Origin: an uncultured Gammaproteobacteria bacterium
Lineage (GTDB): Bacteria > Patescibacteriota > Microgenomatia > CAZETR01 > Amesbacteraceae
Assembly (NCBI GenBank): GCA_964502885.1
Contig: CAZCXU010000001.1
Location: 17,994 to 81,993, forward strand
Direction: 5' to 3'
Length of the DNA: 64,000 bases
This document shows positions 1,025-59,571 of this stretch, one piece after another. Numbering within the stretch: position 1 is the stretch's first letter; each line of letters starts with the position of its first letter. Under the pieces are notes generated by a model. That model was given only the letters and a program-made list of their open reading frames with translations, ran no database searches and was not told the origin of the DNA. The position numbers were made by a program, and so were the translations under genes.

Positions 1025-1675
1025 TTAATCTGAATTTTGCGGCTCTGTCAAGGTGACACGACGCTCAATTTCCGTCGTTTTGCTGTTTTTGCCCACAGAA
1101 ATGATCCGAAAATTATTGTCTCCAGGTTTAAGGGGCATACGGATTGAAAACTCCCCACCCTTGTCCAGAGAAATTAAATTACCATTTATCGAAACAGCGG
1201 CTTCAGGATCGGTTCGACCAATTATTTCCACTGTGGAATGGGTTGTGCTTAAATCTCCGGCTGGTACGATGACCAAAAGCTGTGGCGGGCCGAGATACTG
1301 CCAAAACTGGAAACCCAGATAAACGGCAAACATGGTGAAGATGCTGACAACTGCGGCAATTACAGTGGATCTGGGAGTCCACATACTACTTTGAGAAACG
1401 GGGTCTACAAAACTGCGGGGGACGATTTGACCGAAACGATTTTCGATAAAATCGCGACGGAAAATAGCCATAAGCTGGTCAGGATTTTCGCCTAAGAATT
1501 GGCCATAATTTTTTATGAAACCCTTGGCAATGGTGGCATTTGGCAGTCCGCGGTAATTATCAGACTCAAGCAAACGTAAGAAGTCGATGCGAATACGAGT
1601 AACTTTGGCTGCCTGCTCTAATTCCAGCTTCTGAGACAAGCGGGCTGCCTGTAACATCTGACCTACGGTTTTCAT
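1025..1675 (-). CDS. RodZ-like HTH (XRE-type) membrane protein with a C-terminal DUF4115-like domain
   Basis: The N-terminus MKTVGQMLQAARLSQKLELEQAAKVTRIRIDFLRLLE is a typical RodZ/XRE helix-turn-helix. A central TM segment (AAVVSIFTMFAVYLGFQFW) follows. The 3-prime end overlaps ftsK by 4 nt. Confidence 0.65.
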   Translation of the reverse strand: MKTVGQMLQAARLSQKLELEQAAKVTRIRIDFLRLLESDNYRGLPNATIAKGFIKNYGQFLGENPDQLMAIFRRDFIENRFGQIVPRSFVDPVSQSSMWTPRSTVIAAVVSIFTMFAVYLGFQFWQYLGPPQLLVIVPAGDLSTTHSTVEIIGRTDPEAAVSINGNLISLDKGGEFSIRMPLKPGDNNFRIISVGKNSKTTEIERRVTLTEPQNSD

Positions 1676-3870
1676 GAATTAAGAGAGCTTTCGGTGATCT
1701 CGTCCGAAGCTGCCTCCCCACTACCCGGCATTTCATGAATGAGAATTTCTCTGGCTTTGGCACCATCTGCGGGACCAATGTACCCAGATTGCTGCAACTC
1801 ATCCAGGACACGGGCGGCACGGGCATATCCAATACTAAGTTTGCGCTGCAGGAATGAAGCGGATGCGTTGTTGTGCTGAAGAATCAAACGCAAAGCATCC
1901 TCGAATAAAGAGTCTCGTTCTTCTCCATTTGAAGAAATGAAACTGGCTCCGCGGCCTTTTTTGAGTCCGGTAGGAGTGGAGGTAATCTCTTCAGTGTAGT
2001 TGGGAGTAACACCTTGTCTTTTGAGGAAATCAATGAGCTGGCGGGTTTCTTTGTCAGAAACAAACGCACCCTGGATACGTGAGGGCTTGGCGGCATCCGG
2101 AGGAACATAGAGCATGTCTCCCCTACCCAATAGTTTCTCAGCACCGGGCTGGTCGATAATGACGCGAGAGTCGATCATGCTGGAAACGGCAAATGCGATT
2201 CGGGTGGGGATGTTTGCTTTGATTAAGCCGGTGATAATGTCGACTGATGGCCTCTGGGTAGCGATAACGAGATGGATACCAGTAGCCCGGGCCATCTGAG
2301 CAATTCTGGTGATAGCATCTTCAACTTCGACAGGAGCAAACAACATGATATCTGCCAACTCATCAATAAAGATAACCAGATACGGTAGAGCCTGGAAACC
2401 GGACAGTTCATTGTAGCTTTCAAGGTTGCGGACACCAACTTCCGAGAACAATTTGTAACGACGATCCATCTCATGAGTAGCCCATTTTAGAGCAGATAGT
2501 ACTTTTTCCGGCTCAACGATGACCGGAGAAATTAGATGGGGAATTCCGTTGTACCCAGTTAACTCAACCCGTTTGGGATCGACCATAATAAGATTCAGCT
2601 CCTGAGGACTACAACGAAAGAGAAGTGATGAGATAAAGGCGTTGATAAGTATAGATTTACCAGAACCTGTCTGCCCAGCGACAAGCACATGCGGCATGCG
2701 GGAAATGTCGCCAATAATCGGCTGGCCTGAAACATCCAGCCCCATAGCGACGGCCAATTTACTCTTGTGGTGCTTCATGCGCTCATCATCAAGAATTTTA
2801 CGCAAGCCCACGAACTCTGGAGCACGATTGGGCAGCTCGATACCAACCAGGGATTTGCCGGGGATAGGCGCTTCGATGCGAATTTGACCGGTTGGAGCAG
2901 CTAAAGCCAGAGCCAAATCATTTGAAAGAGCGCTAATTTTACTAAGCTTTGTGCCAATGGCTACCTGAAGACAATATTGGGTGACTGCAGGACCTCCGTT
3001 GACCTCGACCACTTTGGCTTCGATACCAAAAGCGTCAAGTGTCTGCTCGATAGTATCGGCATTTTCCTTGACGCTACCACGATCGGCTTTTCCGGAGATA
3101 TTTTCTGATAGCAGGGTAAGGGGTGGATAGTGCCAGGGAGCATTTGAAGCTGACTGCGGGGTAGTCATATGTGGCAAGTCGTGGCTTTCGGGTGAAGACA
3201 AAGTTGCCAGTTTGGATGAAGCCGCCTTGCCGCCGCCTTCCAATTTGGGATCTGATATACCTGTAGTGCGCATAGGAGTCGGCTTTACCGGCAGACCACT
3301 CTGAACCTGACCGGAAATCTTGATCTGCGGCGGACCTTCCGGGAATTTGCCAGTAAGAGTTTGTTTGCCGGGACGATTGAAGAGTTTTATAAAAAGATTA
3401 ACAACATCTTCGAAAGGGACGTTGGACATGATCATAAGACCGATCAAGGTGGTAATAGTCAGAAGCAGATATGAGCCCGGGGCGGAAATCAGAAAACTGG
3501 AGCTGCGCCACATCTGCAAGCCCAGAGACCCATCATGGGTCAAACCAGATAAGGCAATGATTGTAATAATACTGCCGATCAAGGTGTGAGGTTGGCCGAG
3601 CGAATTTTTGAATTTGATTACCAACATGCCACCCACTAAGAACGGAAAGGGCAAAAACAGCGACGGTAATAGTCCTACATTGGCCAGCAAAAAGGAATTG
3701 ATTTTGGTAAGAAGTAAACCCTGACGAATGAATGAGATCCAAATGAGGCCAGCTAGGAAAAAAAGCATCAGCGCTGAAATGGAATAAACGGTGTGTTTTT
3801 TTAGCTTGAATTTGAATTTGTTGCGGCCAAATGGCGAGGACTTACGACCCATAAATTTATTATATAGCAC
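1672..3870 (-). CDS. ftsK: DNA translocase FtsK/SpoIIIE
   Basis: 732 aa. N-terminal TM segments. Walker A motif VLVAGQTGSGKS and the FtsK motor signature. C-terminal gamma winged-helix region LRLILQHNNASASFLQRKLSIGYARAARVLDELQQSGYIG. Confidence 0.9.
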   Translation of the reverse strand: MLYNKFMGRKSSPFGRNKFKFKLKKHTVYSISALMLFFLAGLIWISFIRQGLLLTKINSFLLANVGLLPSLFLPFPFLVGGMLVIKFKNSLGQPHTLIGSIITIIALSGLTHDGSLGLQMWRSSSFLISAPGSYLLLTITTLIGLMIMSNVPFEDVVNLFIKLFNRPGKQTLTGKFPEGPPQIKISGQVQSGLPVKPTPMRTTGISDPKLEGGGKAASSKLATLSSPESHDLPHMTTPQSASNAPWHYPPLTLLSENISGKADRGSVKENADTIEQTLDAFGIEAKVVEVNGGPAVTQYCLQVAIGTKLSKISALSNDLALALAAPTGQIRIEAPIPGKSLVGIELPNRAPEFVGLRKILDDERMKHHKSKLAVAMGLDVSGQPIIGDISRMPHVLVAGQTGSGKSILINAFISSLLFRCSPQELNLIMVDPKRVELTGYNGIPHLISPVIVEPEKVLSALKWATHEMDRRYKLFSEVGVRNLESYNELSGFQALPYLVIFIDELADIMLFAPVEVEDAITRIAQMARATGIHLVIATQRPSVDIITGLIKANIPTRIAFAVSSMIDSRVIIDQPGAEKLLGRGDMLYVPPDAAKPSRIQGAFVSDKETRQLIDFLKRQGVTPNYTEEITSTPTGLKKGRGASFISSNGEERDSLFEDALRLILQHNNASASFLQRKLSIGYARAARVLDELQQSGYIGPADGAKAREILIHEMPGSGEAASDEITESSLNS

Positions 3871-3969: not shown

Positions 3970-5631
3970 TTAGGATTCTACGACTACGGGAATTATCATC
4001 GGACGGCGGTGTGTCTGTTCGAAAAGAAAAGTCTCCAGAGATGTAGTAATAATCTGTCGTAAATGGCGTTCTGATTCGATTTTTCCAGATTTCCCCCCCA
4101 CGGACTGCTTTATCTTTTGTGAAGCCTGGGCAAGCAAGTTGGCACTGTATTTTTCAAAAACGAAACCACGGCTGATCAACTCAAGATCGATGATGCTGCC
4201 CAGGTTGTTTTGATCTACTTCAGCAATGGCCACGACCACACCTTCTTCAGCCAATTGCTGGCGATCGCGTAAGACTACATTGCCAACATCCCCAACACCC
4301 AAACCGTCTACCATAACGTTTCGCACCGGAACTGGAGCCCCCAAGGAAACGCCAGCAGGAGTAATTACTATTGAGTAGCTATTTTCCGGCAAAAGGATTT
4401 TGTCCGGAGAATAACCCATCTTCTGGGCGAGCCGCGAATACTGAACCATATGCCGATAAGTACCTCCGATTGGCAGTAAATACTGTGGACGAGTAAGCGA
4501 CATAAGTAGAAGCATGTCCTGCTGACCACCATGGCCCGAGACGTGTAAGTGATCGGTAATTTCGGAATAAATTACCTCGGCGCCCTGCTTGGAAAGAGCG
4601 TCAATAAGGGAATGAACTGCAGTCTCATTGCCGGGAATATAGTCTGAAGAGAACATGACTTTGTCGCCAGGGGCAATGCGAATATCCTTATGATCACCAG
4701 TAGCGACCCGCTCCATGGAGGAACCAGTTTGGGCTTGAGAACCAGCGATAAGAATACAGACATTTTTGGGAGGAAGCCGACGAACATCCTTGGTCTGGAT
4801 AAAGGCACTTTTTGGCAAATTGAAATAACCGAGTTTTCCTGCAATGTCGAGATTTCGATCGATGCTACGGCCGGATATGGCGATTTTTCGGCCATGGGCG
4901 ATTGCCGACTTGGCAGCCTGATACCAACGACTAATATTGCTGCTCATTGAAGTAACAATAAATTTTCCACGACAACTGGCAACTTCACGATCAAATGTTT
5001 CCTGCAGAGTCTGCTCCGATGGAGTATATCCGGCCCGCTCACTTCCGAGAGAATCTGACAGCAATAGGCGAATTCCGTCACTACCTGCCCTGGCAATACG
5101 GCGAACATCCGGCTGAACCCCATCAATTGGCGTAAAGTCAAATTTGAAATCGCTGCCGTGATAAACGGTACCAACCGGACTGTGAATGATTAAGTGGGTA
5201 GAGTCCGGAATAGAGTGAGTAATGCGCACTGATTCGACGGTAAATTTTCCCAGCTGCAGAGGCTGGCCAGGAATGAGAATGTTGATTTTCTTGGGCATAT
5301 TTTGGTACTCTGCGAGTTTGTCCATGATGAGGTTGGCCGGCAACTGACTGGCATATACAGGAATATTGGGTAGACGAGGCAGAATATAGGCTAGACCGCC
5401 CGTGTGATCTTCGTGACCGTGGGTAATAACCAAACCTCGAATACGAGATAGCTTGTCTTTGAGGTAGGTGATATCGGGAATTAAGATGTCCACCCCATAC
5501 ATATCCTCTGTGGGAAAACCCATGCCGCAATCGACAAGGAGAATATCGTCTTCCAGTTCGTAAACGAACATGTTTGAGGTGACTTTTCCGAAACCTCCAA
5601 GGGAAATTATTTTGAGAGTAGGATTTGCCAT
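3970..5631 (-). CDS. rnj: Ribonuclease J (metallo-beta-lactamase/beta-CASP RNase)
   Basis: 553 aa. N-terminal KIISLGGFGKVTSNMFVYE...LLVDCGMGFP and the HGHEDHTGGL zinc-binding motif. beta-CASP and C-terminal domains are present. Confidence 0.9.
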   Translation of the reverse strand: MANPTLKIISLGGFGKVTSNMFVYELEDDILLVDCGMGFPTEDMYGVDILIPDITYLKDKLSRIRGLVITHGHEDHTGGLAYILPRLPNIPVYASQLPANLIMDKLAEYQNMPKKINILIPGQPLQLGKFTVESVRITHSIPDSTHLIIHSPVGTVYHGSDFKFDFTPIDGVQPDVRRIARAGSDGIRLLLSDSLGSERAGYTPSEQTLQETFDREVASCRGKFIVTSMSSNISRWYQAAKSAIAHGRKIAISGRSIDRNLDIAGKLGYFNLPKSAFIQTKDVRRLPPKNVCILIAGSQAQTGSSMERVATGDHKDIRIAPGDKVMFSSDYIPGNETAVHSLIDALSKQGAEVIYSEITDHLHVSGHGGQQDMLLLMSLTRPQYLLPIGGTYRHMVQYSRLAQKMGYSPDKILLPENSYSIVITPAGVSLGAPVPVRNVMVDGLGVGDVGNVVLRDRQQLAEEGVVVAIAEVDQNNLGSIIDLELISRGFVFEKYSANLLAQASQKIKQSVGGKSGKIESERHLRQIITTSLETFLFEQTHRRPMIIPVVVES

Positions 5632-5651: not shown

Positions 5652-6302
5652 CTAGAAAAGAGATTGCTGGGCTTTTTTGGCCAACTCTTCGACTGGAGCG
5701 CCTGTTTTCCCGTCAGTTTTCTGGGCTTGTAAATAAGCGTTTAATTTCTGGAAATCAGCTACAAATGCCGCCATCATATCTCCGGAACGAAGCGCAGCAG
5801 CGGGATGATACATGGGAAAAATTAGAATCGGATGGGTTACTTCCGGAAAGCGATAATTGCGCGGCTGACCATGTACACGAGATATGGAGGCATCAGGAAT
5901 AAATTTACCCATTGAGTAGCGCCCAAGAGTGACTATGATTTTAGGGCTAACAATCTGAATCTGACGATCCAACCAACCTTTGCAGGCGAGAATCTCCTCG
6001 GGCGTGGGGTCACGGTTTTCGGGAGGACGAAATTTGACGATGTTGGTAATAAATACTTCAGAACGGGTAAGATGGAGTGGATCGGTCAAAACTTTTTCCA
6101 ATAATTTCCCTGCTTGACCTACGAATGGGCGGCCCAGCTTATCTTCGTTGAAACCGGGAGCTTCTCCTATAAACATGATGCTGGCATTGGGATCGCCTTC
6201 TCCTGGAACGGAGCGAATACAATTGCGGGCGATGTCTAAATCTCTAAATGAGGCAATTTCGGAGGCAATCTGATCCAGAGCGGCTTTTTTGTCTAAATCC
6301 AT
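5652..6302 (-). CDS. Uracil-DNA glycosylase, family 4
   Basis: 216 aa. Motif MFIGEAPGFNEDKLGRPFVGQAGKLL is the UDG family 4 active-site signature. HPAAALR lies near the C-terminus. Confidence 0.85.
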   Translation of the reverse strand: MDLDKKAALDQIASEIASFRDLDIARNCIRSVPGEGDPNASIMFIGEAPGFNEDKLGRPFVGQAGKLLEKVLTDPLHLTRSEVFITNIVKFRPPENRDPTPEEILACKGWLDRQIQIVSPKIIVTLGRYSMGKFIPDASISRVHGQPRNYRFPEVTHPILIFPMYHPAAALRSGDMMAAFVADFQKLNAYLQAQKTDGKTGAPVEELAKKAQQSLF

Positions 6303-6305
6303 GAG

Positions 6306-7352
6306 TTAATATGTAGGGAGGTACTGTTTGACATTGTCTTCGGTAATCACAAATTCTTTACCCTTACCCTCTACTAATAATTTGGCAACCTTGCGGACTA
6401 TCCCCTCGATGGTTCTTTCCAGAGTACGAATACCGGCATCAAAACCCAGAGGACGAGTAATCTTGGCCCAGACGGAATCATCGAACTTGAGAGCACCGGT
6501 GGGAATTGCAGCTTTTTCGAGCTGAGCCGGAAGAATATATTCACGGGCAATGTGAATTTTTTCGTCATCGGAATATGATGGCATAAGAATGGGTTCAAGA
6601 CGGTCCATGACAGCCGTATTGATGTGGGTAGTGTTGTTTGCGGTGGCAATGAACATGACAGACGAGAGGTCAAACGGATAATCGATGTAATGATCGGAGA
6701 AAGAATTGTTTTGAGAGGGATCGAGAAGCTCGACCAATACACCCATAATTTCCCCCCTGGCGGTATCAGAAACACGATCGATTTCATCTAGTAATATGAC
6801 AGGATTTTTGACACCGGTACGACGCAGGCTCTTGATGATGTGTCCGGGCTCAGCTTCCCCATGAATCCGATACTGACCCCGTAGATCGAGAGCAGAATTC
6901 ATACCACCAAAAGGAATGCGGACAAATTTTCGTCCAAGTGCCTCGGCGATACTCTGAGCAATGGTAGTCTTTCCTGTACCCACAAGTCCGACTAACAACA
7001 GAATCGGAGCACGAAATCCGGAATCGGGCTTGCGACGATTGAGTATCATGACGGAAAGGTACTCCAAGAAACGTTCTTTGAGCGACTCCAGCCCATAATG
7101 GTGTTTGTCTAGAACCTGCTTTACGTGACCTAGATCGAGCAGATCTTCAGTCGCATTATTCCAGGGCAAGTGAGTAATCCAATCTATGTAATGAGAAATT
7201 TGTTCGTAGTCGGCACTGTAACTACCATGCTTGGCTTGTCTGCCCAGTCGTTCGATCATCTCCAGAGCGCGGGTTTTGAGATCAGTGGGCAAAACAGCCT
7301 GATCAACCTGGGCTTTGAGTTTTTGAATATCGAGAGTCAGTTCTTGATCCAC
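6306..7352 (-). CDS. Lon-like AAA+ ATPase module. It lacks both the LON N-domain and the S16 protease domain.
   Basis: 348 aa. It aligns along its whole length with the Lon AAA+ region: DKHHYGLESLKERFLEYLSV, Walker A LVGLVGTGKTT, RKFVRIPFGG, ILLDEIDRVS, LLDPSQNNSFSDHYIDYPFDLSSVMFIATAN, DRLEPI and DDEKIHIAREYILP. It ends exactly where the Lon protease domain would begin. UDG starts 3 nt downstream. Confidence 0.75.
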   Translation of the reverse strand: MDQELTLDIQKLKAQVDQAVLPTDLKTRALEMIERLGRQAKHGSYSADYEQISHYIDWITHLPWNNATEDLLDLGHVKQVLDKHHYGLESLKERFLEYLSVMILNRRKPDSGFRAPILLLVGLVGTGKTTIAQSIAEALGRKFVRIPFGGMNSALDLRGQYRIHGEAEPGHIIKSLRRTGVKNPVILLDEIDRVSDTARGEIMGVLVELLDPSQNNSFSDHYIDYPFDLSSVMFIATANNTTHINTAVMDRLEPILMPSYSDDEKIHIAREYILPAQLEKAAIPTGALKFDDSVWAKITRPLGFDAGIRTLERTIEGIVRKVAKLLVEGKGKEFVITEDNVKQYLPTY

Positions 7353-7381: not shown

Positions 7382-9592
7382 TTAGAAGCGACGGCGACCA
7401 CCGCGACCACCACGATCTCTGTCAAAACGTTTTGGGGCGTCAAACGGATCACCGGCATGACGATCGCCCCCACGGGAACCTTCTGTTTTAACTTTAACGG
7501 CTGGATTACCTTGATCATCAAATAACATACTAAGGTTGATGCGACCCTGAGAGTCTATCTCTGTAACCCAAACCTTGACTTTTTGTCCCTCTGAAACAAA
7601 TTGATTGGGATCCTGAACAAAACCCGGGTCCATCTGAGAAACATGGACCAATCCATCTTTTCCGGGGAGAATGTTCACAAAAGCACCAAAAGGCTGAATA
7701 CGGGCAACTGTGCCCTCATAAATTTCTCCGGGAATAACTTCTTTACCCAAACCGCTAATCCAAGCAACTGCTCGTGACGCACCATCAGGATCGGTTCCGG
7801 AGATAAAGACCGTACCGTCGTCCTTGACATCGATAGTCGTAGTAGTGGAAGCCATAAGAGCTTTGATATTTTTTCCGCCTGGACCAATCAGTTCACCGAT
7901 TTTTTCAACGGGAATCTGGGTGCGGATAATGCGAGGTGCGAGTGTAGAAATGTCTGATCTAGGAGCTGCGATAGCTGCGTGAATGACTTCGAGAATCTGT
8001 CCACGGGCAATCTTGGCTCTTTCAAAAGTCTCCTCACACATCTTTAGAGTAATACCGGGAACTTTGACGTCGAGCTGGATAGCGGTAACCCCGGTCTTGG
8101 TGCCTGCGACTTTGAAATCCATGTCTCCGTGATGATCTTCCATGCCGATAATGTCGGTAAGCAGAACATACTTGTTGCTCTTTTGGTAGTCGGGGGCTGT
8201 AACAAGCCCTATAGAAATACCAGCAACTGGCGCAAGGAGAGGAACGCCAGCATCCATGAGTGACAAAGTAGAGCCACAAGTGCTGGCCATGCTAGTAGAA
8301 CCATTTGAGCTCATGATTTCGGAAACAACACGAATGGCATATGGGAAGTCTGCTTCGGCAGGAATGACGGGCAAGAGTGCGCGTTCGGCTAATGCACCGT
8401 GACCAATTTCGCGACGGCTGGGACTGCCCATACGGCCAACTTCACCTGTGCTAAAAGGCGGGAAATTGTAGTGGTGAATATAACGCTTGGTTTCTTCGCC
8501 TTCGGCACTTTCGAGAGACTGATAGAGAGAGGGTGCGCCAAGGGTGGTGATCGTCAAAGCCTGAGTTTGGCCGCGTTGAAAAACGGCGGAACCATGGACT
8601 CGAGGGATTACGCCCACCTGAGCATCTAACGGACGAATTTCGTCGAATTTTCGACCATCTGGACGATGGGATTTTTCGAGGATGTTGCTACGAATTGTCT
8701 TGTGCAATAAATCTTCGACCAAACCCGACACATAGATTTTTTGGCTATCCTCAAGTCCATCAGCTGTGGCCTCAATGAGCTTGGAAAGTGTATTTCCTTC
8801 GTGAGAAGCGGCCTGAGTAATGAAAGCATCCATCGAAGGAGAGATGCGATCTTTTACCAGAGCTGCCACTTCGGCGGGAACTTCAACTGTGGGAAGTGCC
8901 AATTTCGTCTGACCAACCTCGGCCACCAATTCCTTGATCAAACCGATAATCTTTTGATTTTCGGTAAATCCTGCTTTCAGGCCTTCGAGAATGACTGATT
9001 CCGCAATCTGCTTTGCTCCGGCTTCGATCATGTCGATGAGATTTTCGGTGCTGCTGACGACAAGATCCAAAGTGACCCCTGACTGATTGCCATTTAGAGG
9101 ATTGACGACAACTTGGTTGTTTTCATCTACCCCAATACGAACTGTGGAAGTCGGTCCATTCCAGGGCAAGGGAGAAATGGCAATAGCGGCGGAAGCGGCT
9201 ATAGCTCCAACAATATCCGGATCATTGTCTTTGTCTGCAGAGAGAACCATAACGACGAGCTGAACATCACGACGAAAGTTTTTTGGGAATAGGGGGCGAA
9301 CAGTACGATCGATCAAGCGACCGGAAAGCGTCTCTGCATCTGTGGCACGACCTTCACGCTTCACCCAGCGGGAGCCTTTAATACGACCACCGGCATAAAG
9401 TCGCTCCTGGTACTCAACTGACAAAGGAAAATAATCCTTTTTGGTGTCTTCGTTGCCCATGGTGATAACCGCCATGACTGTAGTGTCGCCATATCGGGCG
9501 AGTACTGAAGATGTAGCTTGATGAGCGAAACGACCCACTTCTAATGAAAGTGTGCGTCCGGAAACTTCTAAGGACTTCTTGGTAATTTTCAT
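7382..9592 (-). CDS. pnp: Polyribonucleotide nucleotidyltransferase (PNPase)
   Basis: 736 aa. Two RNase PH domains, KH and S1 domains, and an RGG-rich C-terminal tail. Confidence 0.95.
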   Translation of the reverse strand: MKITKKSLEVSGRTLSLEVGRFAHQATSSVLARYGDTTVMAVITMGNEDTKKDYFPLSVEYQERLYAGGRIKGSRWVKREGRATDAETLSGRLIDRTVRPLFPKNFRRDVQLVVMVLSADKDNDPDIVGAIAASAAIAISPLPWNGPTSTVRIGVDENNQVVVNPLNGNQSGVTLDLVVSSTENLIDMIEAGAKQIAESVILEGLKAGFTENQKIIGLIKELVAEVGQTKLALPTVEVPAEVAALVKDRISPSMDAFITQAASHEGNTLSKLIEATADGLEDSQKIYVSGLVEDLLHKTIRSNILEKSHRPDGRKFDEIRPLDAQVGVIPRVHGSAVFQRGQTQALTITTLGAPSLYQSLESAEGEETKRYIHHYNFPPFSTGEVGRMGSPSRREIGHGALAERALLPVIPAEADFPYAIRVVSEIMSSNGSTSMASTCGSTLSLMDAGVPLLAPVAGISIGLVTAPDYQKSNKYVLLTDIIGMEDHHGDMDFKVAGTKTGVTAIQLDVKVPGITLKMCEETFERAKIARGQILEVIHAAIAAPRSDISTLAPRIIRTQIPVEKIGELIGPGGKNIKALMASTTTTIDVKDDGTVFISGTDPDGASRAVAWISGLGKEVIPGEIYEGTVARIQPFGAFVNILPGKDGLVHVSQMDPGFVQDPNQFVSEGQKVKVWVTEIDSQGRINLSMLFDDQGNPAVKVKTEGSRGGDRHAGDPFDAPKRFDRDRGGRGGRRRF

Positions 9593-9689: not shown

Positions 9690-9959
9690 TTATTTGGAAA
9701 GGCCGAGTTTCTTACCCACGTCCTTGAAACGATCAAGGTCTTTCTTTTGTAAATAAGCAAGTAGTCTGCGGCGCTTGCTGACCATGCTGATCAATCCACG
9801 ACGAGAATGATTGTCTTTTTTGTGCAACTTCAGATGCTCTGCCAATTTGGTGATCTTTTCAGAGAGAAGAGCAATCTGGACTTCGGGAGAACCAGTGTCG
9901 CCTTTAACTACGGCAAATTTTTTGATGATCTCTTGTTTTGATTTGGTGTTTAGGGCCAT
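9690..9959 (-). CDS. rpsO: 30S ribosomal protein S15
   Basis: 89 aa. [37 protein letters not shown] is the conserved S15 core. It has the canonical position upstream of pnp. Confidence 0.95.
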
Positions 9960-10070
9960 ATTTTTGGACTAAAAAAAATTAAGATAGGGCCAACTTAGCG
10001 AGATGAGAAAGCCTCTCAAGCTGTGGCTAATTCTTAACTGAATATGCGAATTATATCACGCAATTGATTT

Positions 10071-10994
10071 TTAAGGAAGCATGGGCCCTTTGAAAACTTT
10101 GGGCTCATACCAATCTGCTGGAGGCTTACTAAGCGGCGGAGGTGGCTCAACTGCAGGAGCTGAATCGGTGCCATATCCTTGAAAACTGGAAACTACGGGC
10201 GGGGGTGTAGGCACTGAATGAAGTGTAGGAATAGATCCGACAGGATAGTCAGAGGGTGACAACTCGGAGTGTCTGACCGCACCATGATTCATCAGCAAGA
10301 AAGCGGCTTCGAAAGTGGAGGCAGTGACCTGATGATGAGTGAAGTTTCGGGTTGCTTTTTCGATACCTGCGAGTAAGTTGGTAGCGGAATCTGCGTCAAA
10401 CGCCAGTCCCAAATCTTTGGCTATATGGGCAACAACCTGAGATAGTGATGGGGAGGAAACGTCATGGAAATGATGGTTTGCGATTGGTTGAAACGACTCT
10501 TCATGGGAAATAGAGACAGATTGGACTCCGGCAGCGTGTTCATTGATCTGGGCAGCTATGGGACCCAGATCCTGGTGACTTTTGACTCCCAGGTAGACCA
10601 CCAAATCAGTTTTACTGGATCCGGCGACAAACTTGAGCTTCTGGTAATCCAAATCCGGGGCTGTATTTTTGGGGGTGATAACCAACTGCAACTCCCCTTT
10701 TTCGAGATTGTAACTCACCTTGTCGACGTGTTCGGTCTGACCAGGAAAAGAAATGACCAGGTTGCGACCCCCAAAAGTGTCAACAACCGTATCTATGCCT
10801 ACTAATCGATTGAATTCGACCAAGACAGCATCGGGGCTGACTACGCGAGTTTGTTTACCGGAATGGTCCAATACCAATTTCAATCCAAGCGAGGCGGCTA
10901 CAATATCAAAGCTGGCGCGCTGGGGTAAAACGAGGCTAATATGGTTTGAAGCTTCAAAGAGACTCCGAAGCGGGGAGAGATCATTTGCGAGCAT
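10071..10994 (-). CDS. NrnA/DHH-family-like protein with degenerate catalytic motifs and a Pro-rich C-terminal tail
   Basis: 307 aa. Order and spacing follow DHH/DHHA1 phosphoesterases, e.g. SATNLLAGIEKATRNFTH vs NrnA AELIYAGIVGDTGRF. The DxD, D and DHH motif positions read QRASFD, G and SHE. The C-terminal roughly 60 aa are Pro-rich. The position between infB and rpsO is typical of the nusA-infB-rbfA-truB neighbourhood. rbfA and truB are absent. Confidence 0.5.
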   Translation of the reverse strand: MLANDLSPLRSLFEASNHISLVLPQRASFDIVAASLGLKLVLDHSGKQTRVVSPDAVLVEFNRLVGIDTVVDTFGGRNLVISFPGQTEHVDKVSYNLEKGELQLVITPKNTAPDLDYQKLKFVAGSSKTDLVVYLGVKSHQDLGPIAAQINEHAAGVQSVSISHEESFQPIANHHFHDVSSPSLSQVVAHIAKDLGLAFDADSATNLLAGIEKATRNFTHHQVTASTFEAAFLLMNHGAVRHSELSPSDYPVGSIPTLHSVPTPPPVVSSFQGYGTDSAPAVEPPPPLSKPPADWYEPKVFKGPMLP

Positions 10995-10997
10995 AGA

Positions 10998-12398
10998 TTA
11001 TCCTGTAGTCGCGATTATATCGTCCCCGATCTTAAAGTCAACAAAGGGGCTGAACACGGCCCCAAATTCTGTGCCGATCTTTACCCTTTCGACTATCGTC
11101 TTGCCCTGGCGGAGAGAGCGGATTTTGGTCTTGCCAATGAGCTGTCCTGCTCGTTCTACTCTGATGAAACTTCCCTTTTCGATGGCTCCTTCGGTGCACT
11201 TACAGCCGGCAATTTTTTCGGATTCGATTTTGAAATCAGCGAGTACTTTTGCTTTGCCAAGAATCTGCTCAGTACTCACCGGGTGCAACTTTTTATCCAG
11301 ATAGTCAAAGAGTTCGTAAATAATACGGAATGTCGAAATACTGACTTTTTCGGACTCAGCAAGCTTGGCAACTCCCGAGGGAGTGCGAACATTGAAACCG
11401 AGAACTTCGGATCCGGAAGTGCGAGCAAGCATGATGTCATTTTCGGAAATGTCACCAGTACCGGAAGACACTATGGTGACGTCTGAGGGTAAACCGGCCA
11501 GAATTGCTTCCAGTGATCCGGCGACATCTGCTTTGATAATGAGATTCAATTTGGATCCACGAACAGAACCACCTGATGATCTGGGAGCGTTGGCTAAATT
11601 TACGGAGGATTGCAATGGGTGGTTGGAAATCTGGCTGCCTACTTCAATCACATGAGCCAACCCAAGAATTTCTACCGGCTGAGACGGCAAAGCAACGGAA
11701 ACAGTCTTGCCATCTGAATCTATGATGGCGCGAGCTTTTCCTATCGAATTGGTCTGAAAAACCTCTTGGCCAGTGTGTAATGATCCATTTTTGATAATTA
11801 AAGTTGCTAATGGGCCCTTTTTTGAGTCCATGCGGCTTTCTAGTACTGTAGCCTCCAGATCCGCGTCCGAATCGGCCATTGCCGGATTTAAACTATTTAT
11901 TAAAGTGATTATCTCTAAAAGATCGGGGACGCCCTGACCAGTCTTGGCGGAAATCTTTACTGCCGGAACACCACCACCAAAAGATTCAACCAGTACCCCA
12001 TCTTCGGCAAGCTGGGTAAGAACCCGGTCAGGATCTGCCGATGGGACATCAATCTTGTTGAGAGCAACTATGAAAGATAATCCAGACTCTTTGATAAAGG
12101 ATATTGATTGCCTGGTCTGGGGCATAACCCCGTCGTCTGCGGCGACTACCAATACGGCAATATCGGCAACCCGACTTCCACGGTGGCGCATTTCGGAAAA
12201 CGCCTGGTGACCTGGAGTGTCAATGAAAGTAACCGAAGTGGAACCGGGAAGTTCTAACTGAAAGGAGCGGATGTGCTGAGTGATGCCACCAGATTCGCGA
12301 GCGGCTACATTGGACTTTCTCAGATAATCCAGCAATGTAGTCTTGCCGTGATCTACATGGCCTAATATTACAACTATCGGCGGTCTAACGCTTTGCAT
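10998..12398 (-). CDS. infB: Translation initiation factor IF-2, short form that starts at the G domain
   Basis: 466 aa. [24 protein letters not shown]1 motif at the N-terminus, DTPGH, NKID, and a C-terminal beta-barrel. No N-terminal extension. Confidence 0.9.
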   Translation of the reverse strand: MQSVRPPIVVILGHVDHGKTTLLDYLRKSNVAARESGGITQHIRSFQLELPGSTSVTFIDTPGHQAFSEMRHRGSRVADIAVLVVAADDGVMPQTRQSISFIKESGLSFIVALNKIDVPSADPDRVLTQLAEDGVLVESFGGGVPAVKISAKTGQGVPDLLEIITLINSLNPAMADSDADLEATVLESRMDSKKGPLATLIIKNGSLHTGQEVFQTNSIGKARAIIDSDGKTVSVALPSQPVEILGLAHVIEVGSQISNHPLQSSVNLANAPRSSGGSVRGSKLNLIIKADVAGSLEAILAGLPSDVTIVSSGTGDISENDIMLARTSGSEVLGFNVRTPSGVAKLAESEKVSISTFRIIYELFDYLDKKLHPVSTEQILGKAKVLADFKIESEKIAGCKCTEGAIEKGSFIRVERAGQLIGKTKIRSLRQGKTIVERVKIGTEFGAVFSPFVDFKIGDDIIATTG

Positions 12399-12474
12399 TT
12401 GTGGAAACTAATTTGTTTTTAATAATTATTCCTAAGCTACAAACTCCAAACAAGGCAAGGTACCGTCGGTATAT

Positions 12475-13590
12475 TTAAATTGTCTCGTTTGACGTGGGGG
12501 CTTCGGAAGCAGCGATGGGGGCATTTTTGTCTTCGGAGACTTCGATGTGATAGCCCGTGAGCTTGCCAGCGAGTTTGGCGTTTTCTCCGTTGCGTCCGAT
12601 GGCTAAGGGCAGCTGGTCTGCCGGAACAAAAACGATCGCAGTCATGGTTTTTTCGTCAATCTTTACAGATATGTTGGCTGCTGGGGCAAGGGCAGATGCG
12701 ATGAATTTTTCGGGGTCTGTATTGTATTGGACGATATCTAATTTCTCTCCGTTTAGCTCACCAATGACAGCCTGAACACGAACACCCTTTTGACCTACAC
12801 AGGATCCAACAGGATCAACACCCGACTGAGTGGAGTAAACGGCAATTTTTGTGCGAGACCCCGGGTCTCGGGCAACGGCCTTGATTTCTACGGAGCCGGA
12901 ACTGACCTCGGGAACTTCACGACGAAATAGCTCTTTGATTAGGTTGTTGTCCGCACGAGAAACAACGACCTCTCGACCACGAACTGTGTCGCGAATGGTC
13001 TGAAGTAAGACAGTAAGACGCTGGTTGAGGTGATAATTTTCGGAGTGGATCTGTTCTGAGGGGGGCATGACGGCTTCAGCCTTGCCAACATCGATAATAA
13101 TGTCGCTACCCACAAAGCGAATAACCATACCTGTGGCCAATGTACCAAGGCGTCTTTCGTACTCGGCGACCACCACTGATTTTTCAGCTTCGCGAATTTT
13201 TTGCAAAATAACTTGTTTGGCGGTCTGGGCGGCAATGCGGCCGAACCCGGGAGGAGTGACATCCGTCTTTTTTGCGCCGGCTTTGGGAGTGAGAGTTACC
13301 TGACCTTCGACTTCAGATGTAGTCGTATCGGCTTCCATTTCGTAAATCTGAGCTTCACCTGTACCCGAATCTAGTTGAACTTCGTAATAATGATCTTCCT
13401 TATAATTTGCCGGGTAGTCTTTTTTAAAAGCAGCAAGAATTGCCTGCTTGATAGTATCCAGGACAACTTGGGGATCAATATTGCGTTCGTGGGCCACCTG
13501 ATTAAGAGCAGCTGAAAACTCAGTGCGAGGAGTGTTGGTGGTGGGACTGCTACGCATTTTTAAAAAAATGGCGGGATACTTTCCCACCAT
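12475..13590 (-). CDS. nusA: Transcription termination/antitermination factor NusA
   Basis: 371 aa. N-terminal RNAP-binding domain, S1 and two KH domains (GRNGENAKLAGKLTGYHIEV). An alternative start at ATG 13557 is possible. Confidence 0.9.
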   Translation of the reverse strand: MVGKYPAIFLKMRSSPTTNTPRTEFSAALNQVAHERNIDPQVVLDTIKQAILAAFKKDYPANYKEDHYYEVQLDSGTGEAQIYEMEADTTTSEVEGQVTLTPKAGAKKTDVTPPGFGRIAAQTAKQVILQKIREAEKSVVVAEYERRLGTLATGMVIRFVGSDIIIDVGKAEAVMPPSEQIHSENYHLNQRLTVLLQTIRDTVRGREVVVSRADNNLIKELFRREVPEVSSGSVEIKAVARDPGSRTKIAVYSTQSGVDPVGSCVGQKGVRVQAVIGELNGEKLDIVQYNTDPEKFIASALAPAANISVKIDEKTMTAIVFVPADQLPLAIGRNGENAKLAGKLTGYHIEVSEDKNAPIAASEAPTSNETI

Positions 13591-13619
13591 TAATAAGGGA
13601 TTTAAACATCCGCATTATA

Positions 13620-14504
13620 TCAAGATCGAGCGAATTCTTCCAGAAGCTGTTTTTGACGACGGTTGAGATTATCGGGAATTTTTATCACTAAATGAATGTA
13701 AAAATCCCCGCGATCATTTTTTGAGAAAGATGAAAGCCGGGCAATCCCCTTACCGGTAAGTCGAACCGTTGTGTTTGGCTGAGTTCCCGGACGGATCTTG
13801 ATCTTTAAATCTCCGTCCAATGTAGTCACGGAGACCTCGCCACCCAAAACAGCTGCCGTGAAAGGGATTTCCTGATTGACGTGGACATCTGCACCATCAC
13901 GTGTGAAGTGGGAATGAGGTTCCACTTCGAATGTAACATCAAAATCAGAGAAACGCAGGTGAGTGCCCGTGTCAGCACCGGCAGGGATTTTGATAGTGTG
14001 AGACTTACCATTGATCTCGACTTTTTGGGTACCACCTTTGACTGCGGTCAGAAATGGAATTCGCAGTGAGTAGTGGGCTTTGCGTGAACCGGCACGCCCA
14101 AAAGGATTACCCCCCCCGCCAAAAAACTGCTCGAAAATATCAAATGGATCTGAAAAACCCCCCATATCACCAAAGGGGTTTTGACCAGGAGTGCTGGAAT
14201 AGTAATAGGTATGCGAGCCAGCGCGACCACCTCCCCCGAAGCCAGAGAATGGGTTCCCTCCTGCTCCACCAAAGGAGGGGTCAAACGCAGCATGGCCAAA
14301 CTGATCATATGTGGAACGTTTCTTGGCATCTGAGAGAACCTGATAGGCTTCGTTGATTTCCTTAAATTTGCTTTCGGATTCGGCCGATTTATTGCGATCT
14401 GGATGCCACTGCAGAGCCAGCTTACGATAGGCGGTTTTGAGTTCCTGAGCCGTAGCGGATTTGGAAACGCCAAGAATATCATAGTAATCACGCTTGGTAG
14501 CCAT
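13620..14504 (-). CDS. dnaJ: J-domain chaperone DnaJ/CbpA type, without the Cys-rich zinc-finger domain
   Basis: 294 aa. [40 protein letters not shown] domain with HPD. A Gly/Phe-rich linker follows. There are no CxxCxGxG repeats. C-terminal substrate-binding domains are present. Confidence 0.85.
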
Positions 14505-14516
14505 ATTATTTTTGTT

Positions 14517-14543
14517 TTGGCAATTTTACAATGCGAGTGCTAA
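14517..14543. promoter_or_regulatory. CIRCE-like HrcA operator, 13 nt upstream of the dnaJ start codon. One half-site is perfect (GAGTGCTAA) and one is degenerate (TTGGCAATT).
   Basis: On the + strand, TTGGCAATT-N9-GAGTGCTAA, compared with CIRCE TTAGCACTC-N9-GAGTGCTAA. The right half-site is identical to the one in front of hrcA in this window. Confidence 0.45.
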
Positions 14544-34892: not shown

Positions 34893-34919
34893 TTAGCAAT
34901 AAATTAACACGAGTGCTAA
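34893..34919. promoter_or_regulatory. CIRCE operator (TTAGCAATA-N9-GAGTGCTAA) immediately upstream of hrcA
   Basis: The right half-site GAGTGCTAA is perfect. The left half matches 7 of 9 positions. The spacer is 9 nt, as in CIRCE. It lies 5 nt from the hrcA ATG. Confidence 0.6.
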
Positions 34920-34969: not shown

Positions 34970-36322
34970 ATGAAGGGACAAAGAGAGAAGGAGCCGCGAT
35001 ACTCATTCATCGTTGTAGTACTGATGGCACTGATGCTACCGGGACTTCTCAAACTTGCTAATGGAGCAATCAGGTATATGGCGGGGGCTGAAGGAAGACT
35101 GGCTTCAATAACCATAGATAGTGATGGTGAATTGGGAAATATGCCGAGAGTATGGGAGTCCCTTGCTCAAGGTGGAGAGAATTTGAGGACTTTTCTGGAT
35201 GGGGATATCGGAGATGTAATCCGGCTTAAACCAAAGTACATTCGCATAGATCATATATATGATGAGTTCAAGGTGGTGAGTCGAAGTAATGGGCAGCTTA
35301 TATATGACTGGACTGCACTTGATCATACTGTAGAGAGAATTGCATCTGTGGGGGCTAAGCCATTTTTTGCACTATCATATATGCCTCCAGCGATTTCCAA
35401 GGATGGTTCCATACTGGCTGAGCCAAACAATTGGAAGGATTGGGAGGCGGTTGTACAAAAAACAATTGAACACTTCAGCGGGGAACTGGGCATTGAGGAT
35501 GTGTACTATGAAGTATGGAATGAGCCAGACTTGTTTGGTAAGTGGACTATGGGAGGAAAAAAGGACTACAAAGTTCTTTATATGTACGCATCCAGAGGCG
35601 CGACAGCGGCCAAAAATGTAAAACCATTTAAAATCGGCGGTCCAGGTACATCCGGACTATATAAGAATTGGCTTGATCGTTTTTTCCCGTTTATTTTGTC
35701 AAACAAATTAAGATTGGATTTTTTTTCCTGGCACAGGTACGACTTAGACCTCACGAAATATGCACAGGATATTCGTAGTGTGGATGCCTGGCTGGAAAGA
35801 CATCCATACTTCTCCCGAGTTGAAAAGATTATCTCTGAGATGGGACCAAACAGTGAGATGGGCAACGAAAACGACACACATGTGGGAGCAGCCCACACCG
35901 TAGCCACAGCTAAGGAGCTGTTACAAAAAGTAGATATGGGTTTTAATTTTGCGGTAAATGGGAGCTGGGGAATACTGGGTAGACCAAGGTATAAAGCACT
36001 TGAATATCTGGCGTCTCTACCACAAACCCGACTTTCGCTCTCCGGCGAGGGTACTTGGGTTAAAGCAATAGCAGCTGCTGATAAAAACGCGTCAGAGGTT
36101 CGGGTGATATTGGTAAACTACGACCAAAAAGGGATTCACAACGAGGTGGTTCCTGTGAATTTCACAGGGCTCAAGGGAAGTAAATATAAACTAACAACTG
36201 AACTACTGGATGGCATGAGGCTAGATGAAGTAATTGCAACTACGAGCAGTTTGCTTCAATATAAGGTCCCCATGACCGCAAACTCAGTAGCCAGAGTGGT
36301 ACTCAGCGTCTTAGAAGACTAA
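34970..36322 (+). CDS. Membrane-anchored glycoside hydrolase, TIM-barrel GH39/GH5-like
   Basis: 450 aa. N-terminal signal anchor (MKGQREKEPRYSFIVVVLMALMLPG). DVYYEVWNEPDLFG carries the NEP acid/base catalytic motif of clan GH-A. TACAAT at 34958-63 is 6 nt upstream of the ATG. Confidence 0.6.
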   Translation: MKGQREKEPRYSFIVVVLMALMLPGLLKLANGAIRYMAGAEGRLASITIDSDGELGNMPRVWESLAQGGENLRTFLDGDIGDVIRLKPKYIRIDHIYDEFKVVSRSNGQLIYDWTALDHTVERIASVGAKPFFALSYMPPAISKDGSILAEPNNWKDWEAVVQKTIEHFSGELGIEDVYYEVWNEPDLFGKWTMGGKKDYKVLYMYASRGATAAKNVKPFKIGGPGTSGLYKNWLDRFFPFILSNKLRLDFFSWHRYDLDLTKYAQDIRSVDAWLERHPYFSRVEKIISEMGPNSEMGNENDTHVGAAHTVATAKELLQKVDMGFNFAVNGSWGILGRPRYKALEYLASLPQTRLSLSGEGTWVKAIAAADKNASEVRVILVNYDQKGIHNEVVPVNFTGLKGSKYKLTTELLDGMRLDEVIATTSSLLQYKVPMTANSVARVVLSVLED

Positions 36323-57998: not shown

Positions 57999-58583
57999 AT
58001 GATTATATGCGGATTAGACGAAGTAGGAAGAGGGCCACTGGCGGGGCCTCTAGTGGCAGCTGGTGTAATTTTAGGAAGAAAAGTCGTCGGTCTCAATGAT
58101 AGTAAAAAACTTAACCCCAACCAGAGAAGAATACTGTACGAAGAAATTATTAACACATGTAAAGTTTACGCCGTTGAAGTTTTTTCCGTAGAAGAAATCG
58201 ACCGGGTAGGAATAGGGCAAGCTAACAAGACGATATTTGAAATGCTTATTAAAAAAATAGCGGCTGACAAATATATAGTCGACGGAAACTTAAGAATAAC
58301 GGGAGACACAAGAAACCGTCCAAATATTGAATCCGTCATCAAGGCAGATGCAAAGTTTCCGGAGGTAATGGCGGCTTCGATAGTAGCTAAAGTCACCCGA
58401 GACGGGATAATGCGCAATCTACATAAAGAGTATCCAGAATACGGATGGGAAACAAATGTAGGCTACGGAACAAAAAAACATATCAGCGCAATAATTTCAT
58501 TCGGAACAACCCCCCACCACCGAATCAAATTTGTTCAGACTGCGGTGACAAACCGCCTGACGACTTTGACGAGTCATCTTTAA
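57999..58583 (+). CDS. rnhB: Ribonuclease HII
   Basis: 194 aa. MIICGLDEVGRGPLAGPLVAAGVIL carries the DEVGRG catalytic motif. Confidence 0.9.
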   Translation: MIICGLDEVGRGPLAGPLVAAGVILGRKVVGLNDSKKLNPNQRRILYEEIINTCKVYAVEVFSVEEIDRVGIGQANKTIFEMLIKKIAADKYIVDGNLRITGDTRNRPNIESVIKADAKFPEVMAASIVAKVTRDGIMRNLHKEYPEYGWETNVGYGTKKHISAIISFGTTPHHRIKFVQTAVTNRLTTLTSHL

Positions 58584-59571
58584 GACCAGAGAGGAGCTGA
58601 GCATGATTAAGTTTGGCCCCCAAAGACGAAGTCCGCACGGACACCTGAGACATCTGATTATAAGCATTGGTCACATGCCGTCCCAACACTCCCAAGCTAT
58701 CCTCGATTTGAGAGTAGTCTCCTTGAATGCTTTTTATAAGCTTTAGTAGTTCAAAAGACTTGTCCTGCAACTGCTTGCTTTGGTACGCCATCAACACACC
58801 TTTAAGATATGCGTATAAAGTAGCAGGTGAAACGGGAATGATGCGTTTTTGAGATGCAAAGTCGGTCAGTTCTGAATTGGAAGCAATTTCATAAAAGACA
58901 GATTCACTAGGGATGTACATGAAAGCGATGTCGACAGTGCCCTCGTCTGGATTAATGTATTTCTCAGAAATTGAGGAGGTGTGTTTTTTTACGTCCTGGA
59001 TAAAGTCCTTTTTGGCCCGTTCACGCTGTACTTCTTCTGAAGAAGAAAAAATTAAACGAAAGTTTGACATAGGAAACTTGGAATCAATGCACAACAGGCC
59101 GGCGGCAGTGACAATGGCCGCGTCAACCCGGTTTCCTGACCTAAAAGAATGCTGGACCTTGTAAAGATGCGTCGGAAGTATCTGTTTGAGCATATCGACC
59201 AGGATTTGTTCGCCTAAATTACCCCGAAGTTTCGGGTGATTTAAAAATTCTTGGATATCTTTTATTCCCTTACCAAATTCAGTCATCTCTCCCAAATTTC
59301 GTTGAACCTGAGAGATTAAGGTAGCTGCTGTGTCCAGCCGAGAGTTGAGTTGTTGCGAGTTCTCACGAAGCGCCCTAGATATTTCAAAGGAAGAGCCTCT
59401 CAGGGCTTCGTTCATGTTTCTGTTGGTGTTATCAAGCGAATTCTGCATTGACTGCAACCAGGGCAAGAGATCCACCCCAGGGGACTTTGTCAGCCACTTA
59501 CGGATAAAAAAGAGGCTCACGGAAAAACTAAGCAAAATGACGCACGAGAGGAAAAGAATATCAGTATTCAT
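58525..59571 (-). CDS. rmuC: DNA recombination protein RmuC
   Basis: 348 aa. N-terminal TM segment, a long coiled coil, KLRGNLGEQILVDMLKQ (matching the RmuC TRGQWGE region), and a C-terminal nuclease-like domain. Its 3-prime end overlaps rnhB by 59 nt in convergent orientation. Confidence 0.75.
   Translation of the reverse strand: MNTDILFLSCVILLSFSVSLFFIRKWLTKSPGVDLLPWLQSMQNSLDNTNRNMNEALRGSSFEISRALRENSQQLNSRLDTAATLISQVQRNLGEMTEFGKGIKDIQEFLNHPKLRGNLGEQILVDMLKQILPTHLYKVQHSFRSGNRVDAAIVTAAGLLCIDSKFPMSNFRLIFSSSEEVQRERAKKDFIQDVKKHTSSISEKYINPDEGTVDIAFMYIPSESVFYEIASNSELTDFASQKRIIPVSPATLYAYLKGVLMAYQSKQLQDKSFELLKLIKSIQGDYSQIEDSLGVLGRHVTNAYNQMSQVSVRTSSLGAKLNHAQLLSGLKDDSSKSSGGLSPQSEQI

Follow-up and report, generated by a model that had tools for sequence, protein, structure and literature searches.

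What remains of a Lon protease when its protease is gone, and what such a protein could do, is the question raised by a minus-strand gene at positions 6306..7352 of the DNA analyzed here, a stretch of 64,000 nucleotides of contig CAZCXU010000001.1 (the 64-kb window). An earlier note on this DNA had described the gene product as a stand-alone Lon AAA+ module with neither N-domain nor protease domain, encoded 3 nucleotides before a gene for uracil-DNA glycosylase (UDG). The results presented here place it in a conserved protein family without earlier description, a protease-less Lon ATPase of the Microgenomates, WWE3 and Dojkabacteria branch of the Patescibacteria (Candidate Phyla Radiation, CPR). 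The descriptive part of this interpretation is nearly certain, while the function proposed below for the family is tentative.

The open reading frame (ORF) encodes 348 amino acids, from a GTG start to a TAA stop at 6308-6306, and an in-frame TAA four codons 5' of the GTG makes an N-terminal extension impossible. The only specific matches of the protein in a Pfam scan were to AAA and Lon_lid, with none to LON/LAN (PF02190) or Lon_C at E <= 0.01. The LonA (endopeptidase La) model TIGR00763 was matched over profile positions 255-571 of 795 with 330.3 bits, below its cutoff of 608.05, and the E. coli-type Lon model NF008053 over profile positions 252-579 of 784, corresponding to query residues 10-345, with 268.8 bits vs. 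a cutoff of 891; no existing NCBIfam model captures the protease-less family. As the earlier note had stated, similarity to the Lon ATPase region, including the sensors and the alpha subdomain, extends over the whole length of the protein. An end-to-end alignment was obtained with the AAA+ portion of LonA structures in the PDB (E = 7e-81 for 3m6a, from B. subtilis), and identity to LonA is around 40% over all 348 residues. All PDB matches at E <= 1e-20 corresponded to LonA or LONP1, with no LonB or LonC structure at that threshold and no NCBIfam LonB or LonC model at E <= 0.01. An AlphaFold2 model obtained with 46 family sequences as input (pLDDT 87.8, pTM 0.80) gave its best superposition on LonA/LONP1 chains, with TM values of 0.88/0.91 against 6n2i (E. 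coli Lon 235-584). The match to LonA begins at the three-helix bundle, includes the pre-sensor-1 insert and ends with the AAA+ lid; by sequence and fold, the 348-residue protein is a LonA AAA+ module.

The two ends of the protein define what has been lost. Residues 1-110 (7023..7352), with five helices in the model and a TIGR00763 match that begins at position 255, correspond to the three-helix end of the LonA helical HI(CC) region plus linker helices, so that the proposed absence of an N-domain holds for the globular LAN domain, which is gone, but not for the approximately 110 residues of helical pre-AAA+ region that are retained. At the other end, the Lon-type lid or alpha subdomain (residues 262-345, 6318..6569; Pfam Lon_lid) is followed by only 3 residues and the stop codon, at the point where the LonA linker to the protease domain begins, i.e. 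at the AAA+/S16 boundary that the earlier note had indicated.

Residues of the ATPase site and the central pore were compared in 99 family members and 60 full-length LonA proteins. The Walker A lysine, Lys128 of the GLVGTGKTT motif (residues 122-130, 6963..6989), is present in 99/99 family members and 60/60 LonA, and the same is true of Asp189-Glu190 in the Walker B motif ILLDEIDR (residues 186-193, 6774..6797), sensor-1 Asn239 (6636..6638), the arginine finger Arg251 (6600..6602) and sensor-2 Arg309 (6426..6428). With Walker A and B, sensor 1, the trans arginine finger and sensor 2 all present and invariant, the family retains the residues required for ATP binding and hydrolysis in a ring, and the ATPase engine is, judging from these alignments, under strict purifying selection.

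The residues that grip the substrate give a very different picture. In Meiothermus taiwanensis LonA (MtaLonA), Tyr397 in pore-loop 1 and Trp431 in pore-loop 2 contact the translocating substrate and are needed for degradation (PMC8503904). The window protein has His164 at the first of these positions, within pore-loop 1 (RGQYRIHGEAEPG, residues 158-170, 6843..6881), and Ala198 at the second, within pore-loop 2 (SDTARGE, residues 195-201, 6750..6770). Position 164 is tyrosine in 60/60 LonA but variable in the family (18 His, 18 Phe, 13 Ser, 9 Arg, 8 Leu and 8 Tyr, plus others), while position 198, aromatic in 46/60 LonA (25 Phe, 17 Tyr, 4 Trp), is mostly small in the family (57 Ala, 14 Ser, 10 Gly). 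The flanks of both loops are strongly conserved in a family-specific manner (Ser161 in 85/99, Arg/Lys162 in 95/99, Glu168 in 94/99, Ile202 in 86/99 and Met203 in 98/99), and the motifs that characterize the family are GLVGTGKTT (Walker A), RGxS[RK]xxx[DE]AEPG and [DE]IMG. Three elements of processive proteolysis, namely the LAN domain, the aromatic paddles of the pore loops and the S16 chamber, have thus been lost.

Nothing resembling the missing domains was found in the vicinity of the gene. The window and the family loci described below were probed with a regular expression for DGPSAG-type motifs and by tblastn with four S16 domains, one of them from E. coli Lon and three taken from full-length matches. 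No S16-like sequence was detected in any frame of the 64-kb window, where the single weak tblastn match (E = 0.24) lies inside dnaK and is attributable to chance, and LAN similarity was likewise absent from it. The same negative result for S16 and LAN was obtained in approximately 1.5 Mb of sequence flanking 85 loci, although, since these flanks sample only around 2% of each genome, the local absence of S16 is weak evidence. It does argue against a recent gene split. A database search with one S16 domain returned only canonical Lon fragments (from Chloroflexi, Deltaproteobacteria and others) and was uninformative with respect to S16 in Microgenomates.

The gene is far from being a peculiarity of one contig. 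More than 120 clusters were matched in a search of 5.8 billion proteins, with 64-100% identity to the 348-residue protein; among the 120 listed, 113 have 344-352 residues (range 317-395), none contains Lon_C, and those carrying an organism name belong to Candidatus Amesbacteria. Database labels on family members read 'Lon protease', 'ATP-dependent Lon protease' or 'AAA family ATPase'. Deeper short relatives, with 38-58% identity and 343-669 residues, were recovered in a HMMER scan of 1.84 billion representatives, two of them annotated as Candidatus Dojkabacteria; their extra length consists of low-complexity sequence rich in Gln, Pro, Ser and Thr, N- or C-terminal, with no peptidase. In a scan of GTDB with one genome per species, at least 473 stretches matched, and the best 80 of these came from Ames-, Shapiro-, Gottesman-, Roizman-, Woese-, Levy- and Daviesbacteria and from WWE3. 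All 80 species-level genomes examined carry a protein of the same type, with 340-438 residues, and in a set of 85 loci from around 80 species, retrieved with approximately 10 kb of flanking sequence on which the S16 and LAN searches were done, the ORF has this same length in every case (85/85) and its stop codon lies no more than 6 residues past the C-terminus of the query. The short representatives likewise end within 6 residues of the lid, apart from low-complexity tails in some of them. Neighbor-joining analysis placed the short proteins in a single clade, with a long stem between them and the eight full-length LonA included, and with the WWE3 loci on a deep branch of their own; the family is thus monophyletic with respect to full-length LonA. 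The closest full-length LonA are around 43% identical and come from unrelated phyla (Anaerolineales, Veillonellaceae, Clostridiales), with no close full-length relative among the nearest representatives, and no second copy of the gene exists in the 64-kb window. A full-text search of the literature retrieved no description of a protease-less Lon, either in the CPR or elsewhere. Conservation of the family spans a class-level or deeper radiation.

Some additional observations were made in these searches. Seven of the deeper representatives (P0130, P0139, P0142, P0143, P0149, P0165, P0167) carry extensions of up to around 320 residues rich in Gln, Pro, Ser, Thr and Asn, mostly N-terminal and, in P0165 and P0167, C-terminal; the places they occupy are precisely those of the LAN and protease domains in LonA. 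The query scored highest against representatives P0121-P0134 and P0150, proteins of 889-3865 residues in which the Lon-type AAA+ module is present two or three times in tandem (2-3 Walker A motifs). These could be either 'tandem-AAA+ Lon' proteins or fused gene calls, and several end in an S16-type motif. Many third-party metagenome-assembled records with the typical Microgenomates gene array are titled 'uncultured Gammaproteobacteria' or 'Pseudomonadales' (L010-L013, L016, L021, L022, L025-L027 and others), and among L072 and L058 there is one titled 'Candidatus Methanoperedens sp.' and one 'Saccharibacteria'. Wrong taxonomic labels or mis-binned contigs are the probable reason for these titles.

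In the window, the gene is part of a run of genes on the minus strand, in the order dnaJ (13620-14504), nusA (12475-13590), a short infB (10998-12398), a gene for a 307-residue protein of no assigned identity (10071-10994), rpsO (9690-9959), pnp, encoding PNPase (7382..9592), the Lon-AAA gene, udg (5652..6302), rnj, encoding RNase J (3970..5631), and ftsK (1672..3870), with the portion upstream of pnp, from dnaJ to rpsO, covering 9690..14504. The gaps are of 29 nucleotides between pnp and the Lon-AAA gene, 3 between the latter and udg, and 20 between udg and rnj, and no promoter- or terminator-like site above chance was found by scanning the pnp-rnj interval. The family 4 UDG reported earlier is indeed the next gene (TIGR00758, 177.5 bits vs. 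a cutoff of 125.3; Pfam UDG, 1e-33), its ATG at 6302 being separated from the Lon-AAA stop codon by the trinucleotide CTC (6305-6303).

The link between both genes is not specific, however, as became evident when synteny was evaluated in the 63 species-level loci with enough flanking sequence. RNase J is encoded downstream on the same strand, at any spacing, in 54/63 loci: directly after the Lon-AAA gene in 29, after UDG alone in 7, after UDG and other gene(s) in 13, and after other gene(s) without UDG in 5; in the remaining 9 there is no RNase J within 4.5 kb downstream. PNPase is encoded upstream in 44/63 loci and is directly adjacent in 32. UDG therefore lies between the Lon-AAA gene and rnj in 20/63 loci, patchily distributed over the tree, and may be an ancestral member of the array because it is also found in WWE3 loci on their separate deep branch. 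In a genome with an AAA+ protein 65% identical to the query, a metallophosphoesterase gene separates the two, and in locus L008 UDG comes after ftsK. The operonic pairing with UDG suspected by the earlier note, and the conservation of that adjacency in relatives, thus did not survive this comparison: UDG is a facultative member of the gene array, and the stable neighbors of the Lon-AAA gene are two RNases, PNPase and RNase J.

A different location was observed in 10/80 loci (L015, L016, L019, L023, L026, L058, L064, L070, L082, L084), which include Roizmanbacteria and where the gene is head-to-head with groES-groEL. These loci form one clade and therefore represent one inherited rearrangement. 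In the three that were checked (L015, L023, L082) the gene downstream of Lon-AAA is convergent, and in L015 its product matches Pfam RNaseH_like (PF04308). Heat-shock control through CIRCE was considered and rejected for the Lon-AAA gene. CIRCE-like inverted repeats (TTAGCA..N9..GAGTGCTAA) that deviate at 2-3 positions occur twice in the window, against a chance expectation of 0.03, at 14517-14543, just upstream of dnaJ and hence at the head of the minus-strand array, and at 34893-34919, at the start of hrcA-grpE-dnaK, but none adjoins the Lon-AAA gene in the window and none was found in the groES/Lon-AAA intergenic regions.

These data allow several explanations to be weighed. That the gene is a pseudogene truncated from a full-length lon, or owes its form to an error in sequencing or assembly, is suggested by the unusual length only. 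Conservation refutes this explanation: across more than 120 clusters, and at 85 independent loci drawn from many assemblies, the protein has the same length and stops at the same point, the catalytic residues are invariant, and a complete UDG gene begins 3 nucleotides past the stop, with no S16 similarity in any frame. The chance that it is correct is negligible, and the frameshifted or adjacent protease that the earlier note had named as what could overturn its description was not there. In a split Lon, an arrangement that the same note had considered, the AAA+ ring would dock onto S16 or another self-compartmentalised peptidase encoded elsewhere in the genome and still serve as a protease motor, in the way that the AAA+ motors ClpX and HslU work with the separate peptidases ClpP and HslV. 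The full conservation of the ATPase machinery would be in agreement with this, as would an end point that coincides exactly with the LonA linker to the protease domain, and the aromatic C-terminal residue of Amesbacteria and several relatives (Tyr in 35 and Phe in 5 of 46), seen also in deeper representatives ending in ...QMY, ...QAW or ...NYY, could represent a tail for docking. Over the wider family, however, the last residues are not conserved, and both substrate-gripping aromatics of the pore loops are lost or unconstrained, which fits poorly with the feeding of a protease; the LAN domain, responsible for substrate recognition, is gone too. Moreover, a recent split usually leaves the two halves adjacent in at least some genomes, and no S16 was found in the window or, within the small part of each genome that the flanks cover, at any of the 85 loci. 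The proposal gained no support, and we consider it unlikely.

The neighborhood itself could be taken to indicate that the Lon-derived ring is an RNA- or ribonucleoprotein (RNP)-directed ATPase, forming with PNPase and RNase J the ATP-dependent part of an RNA-decay assembly, much like a DEAD-box helicase. The position of the gene between pnp and rnj, maintained even in the deep-branching WWE3 loci, and the short gaps in the window point in this direction, and His or Arg occupies the tip of pore-loop 1 in 27/99 members, while position 162 is basic in 95/99. LonA AAA+ modules bind nucleic acids, and the depositors of 6n2i titled the entry 'DNA-binding ATP-dependent protease La'. However, the array also holds the functionally unrelated ftsK, udg, dnaJ and alaS, so that the order may be mere inheritance, and a similar order (rpsO-pnpA ... 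rnjB ... spoIIIE), without a Lon-AAA gene, is presumably that of B. subtilis and other Firmicutes. The tip of the pore loop is variable, with no conserved basic residue, and is followed by conserved acidic ones (Asp/Glu166 and Glu168), and in the whole groESL-adjacent clade the gene is away from both pnp and rnj. Nucleic acid binding could not be deduced from charge either, since the median isoelectric point of the family, 6.2, is no different from that of LonA modules. Because of the mixture of unrelated genes, the unremarkable charge and the order that we take to exist in B. subtilis, synteny alone is weak evidence, and an RNA-directed role seems improbable to us; the more precise proposal that the ring has been re-purposed as a component of RNA decay, co-expressed with PNPase and RNase J and remodelling RNA or RNPs, is one we would give little credence. 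A DNA repair unit in which the ATPase loads, remodels or regulates the glycosylase on DNA, both genes being translationally coupled, would account for the 3-nucleotide gap, and the presence of UDG before rnj in 20/63 loci, WWE3 included, indicates that the association is old. The direct adjacency in only 7/63 loci, the 29/63 in which rnj follows immediately without UDG, the intervening metallophosphoesterase gene and the displaced UDG of L008 all speak against such a unit, and family 4 UDGs are single-subunit enzymes that are not known to require an ATPase. We regard it as very unlikely.

We therefore lean, with little more than even confidence, towards a LonA-derived, ATP-hydrolysing but non-proteolytic and probably non-threading remodeller or chaperone, an assignment made from the residues and domains that have been kept and lost. 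The free-standing LonA AAA+ module would assemble into a Lon-like hexamer and hydrolyse ATP, with no processive threading of polypeptides into a degradation chamber, and most likely would use ATP to remodel proteins or their complexes or to act on them as a chaperone, which would be the proteolysis-independent side of Lon. Its gene is probably co-transcribed within the array dnaJ-nusA-infB-x-rpsO-pnp-[Lon-AAA]-(udg)-rnj-ftsK, and the 3-nucleotide spacing to udg would be a consequence of compact inherited gene order, with no functional unit between the two. Of the alternative offered by the earlier note, a domain loss that left an unfoldase or chaperone, the loss holds for the whole family (85 loci), whereas 'unfoldase' is doubtful because the aromatics of the pore loops are not conserved. 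The head-to-head pairing with groESL in one clade is weakly consistent with a role in proteostasis.

Several observations weigh against the remodeller or chaperone just proposed. The conserved, family-specific flanks of the pore loops imply that the channel is under selection for something, and about one quarter of the members have Phe or Tyr at the pore-loop 1 position, so that a degree of threading may survive. The adjacency to groESL goes back to just one rearrangement, inherited by the clade, and the pnp/rnj neighborhood fits an RNA-related role equally well. In addition, a closed ring of the isolated AAA+ module may not be stable: in crystals, residues 235-584 of E. coli Lon form a helical hexamer that is open and contains bound ADP (PMC6722904).

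Other genes in the window also showed particular features. The 307-residue protein between infB and rpsO matched no Pfam family and has a C-terminal tail rich in proline; its gene sits where rbfA and truB lie in many bacteria, and a tblastn match at the same position was obtained in most related Microgenomates loci. PNPase ends, after its S1 domain, in an Arg/Gly-rich tail (7382-7480, minus strand; ...GSRGGDRHAGDPFDAPKRFDRDRGGRGGRRRF) that may be an extra RNA-binding extension. The translation initiation factor IF2 encoded by infB, with only 466 residues, comprises the GTPase, domain II and IF-2 domains without a long N-terminal region, and this short form (462-467 residues) also appears in related loci. 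Family 4 UDGs typically have a set of four Cys ligands for a [4Fe-4S] cluster, which the window UDG cannot carry, having only two cysteines (C28 and C107); it also has a charged C-terminal tail of 25 residues. Elsewhere in the window there are genes for a 967-residue UvrD-type helicase fused to a PD-(D/E)XK nuclease (AddA-like; 55071-57974, minus strand) with RmuC adjacent (58525-59571, minus strand), and for a GH39-family glycoside hydrolase (34970-36322, plus strand) next to the hrcA-grpE-dnaK operon.

Two published accounts define Lon by the union of ATPase and protease in a single chain (PMC9569914, PMC3391209). A motor-only Lon kept over a major branch of the CPR raises the question of Lon-type quality control in these reduced genomes, and offers a natural system for what the Lon ATPase ring does alone, with chaperone, regulatory or nucleic acid-linked activities all being possible. 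If the RNA-decay proposal were true, a protease motor would have been turned into a factor of RNA metabolism in ultra-small bacteria.

With LonA (E. coli Lon, B. subtilis LonA, M. taiwanensis LonA and human LONP1) the family shares the three-helix bundle, the nucleotide-binding domain, the Lon lid and the ATPase residues, and it differs in having no LAN domain, no S16 Ser-Lys peptidase and neither the conserved pore-loop 1 Tyr nor the pore-loop 2 aromatic. Only one of the five LonA features that were compared, the AAA+ module with Lon lid and ATPase motifs, is present, and the other four (LAN, S16, pore-loop aromatics and a curated model score) are absent; for this reason these proteins should not be filed or annotated as Lon protease, and the labels 'Lon protease' and 'ATP-dependent Lon protease' that some of them bear are wrong as a statement of function. 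As single-module ATPases of the same broad AAA+ group, with no peptidase domain in the gene, they resemble ClpX and HslU. The latter have aromatic pore loops and docking elements (the IGF loop and a C-terminal tail), and their genes usually lie next to that of the peptidase; no such feature was seen for the CPR family in the 85 loci and 99 members. A likeness to BrxL lies in that both are Lon-related proteins outside classical proteolysis. A defence function of the BrxL kind was nevertheless discarded: PADLOC gave no match to the BrxL model, the best of its weak generic AAA+ matches being DolB (5e-8), and the neighbors pnp, udg, rnj and ftsK are housekeeping genes and do not form a defence island.

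Two further counterparts are a fragment and a mirror image. Residues 235-584 of E. coli Lon (6n2i), obtained by limited proteolysis, comprise the full AAA+ module preceded by the C-terminal portion of the helical HI(CC) region (PMC6722904) and are nearly co-extensive with the CPR protein, which is their natural counterpart; 6n2i is a laboratory fragment with canonical pore loops, while the CPR protein is a natural, free-standing and conserved product in which these loops are altered. LonC (e.g. MtaLonC) belongs to the Lon family but has lost one of its two activities (PMC3391209, PMC13069640). The CPR proteins do not belong to LonB, which is marked by a transmembrane insert in its AAA+ module, to the sporulation LonB type or to LonC, as indicated by the lack of model and structure matches, their intact ATPase motifs and the lack of a protease, and with respect to LonC they represent the reciprocal case: there the protease is kept and the ATPase module is inactive, so that the protease has outlasted a working motor, whereas in the CPR family the ATPase is kept, and the motor has outlasted the protease, the LAN domain and the translocating residues of the pore loops.

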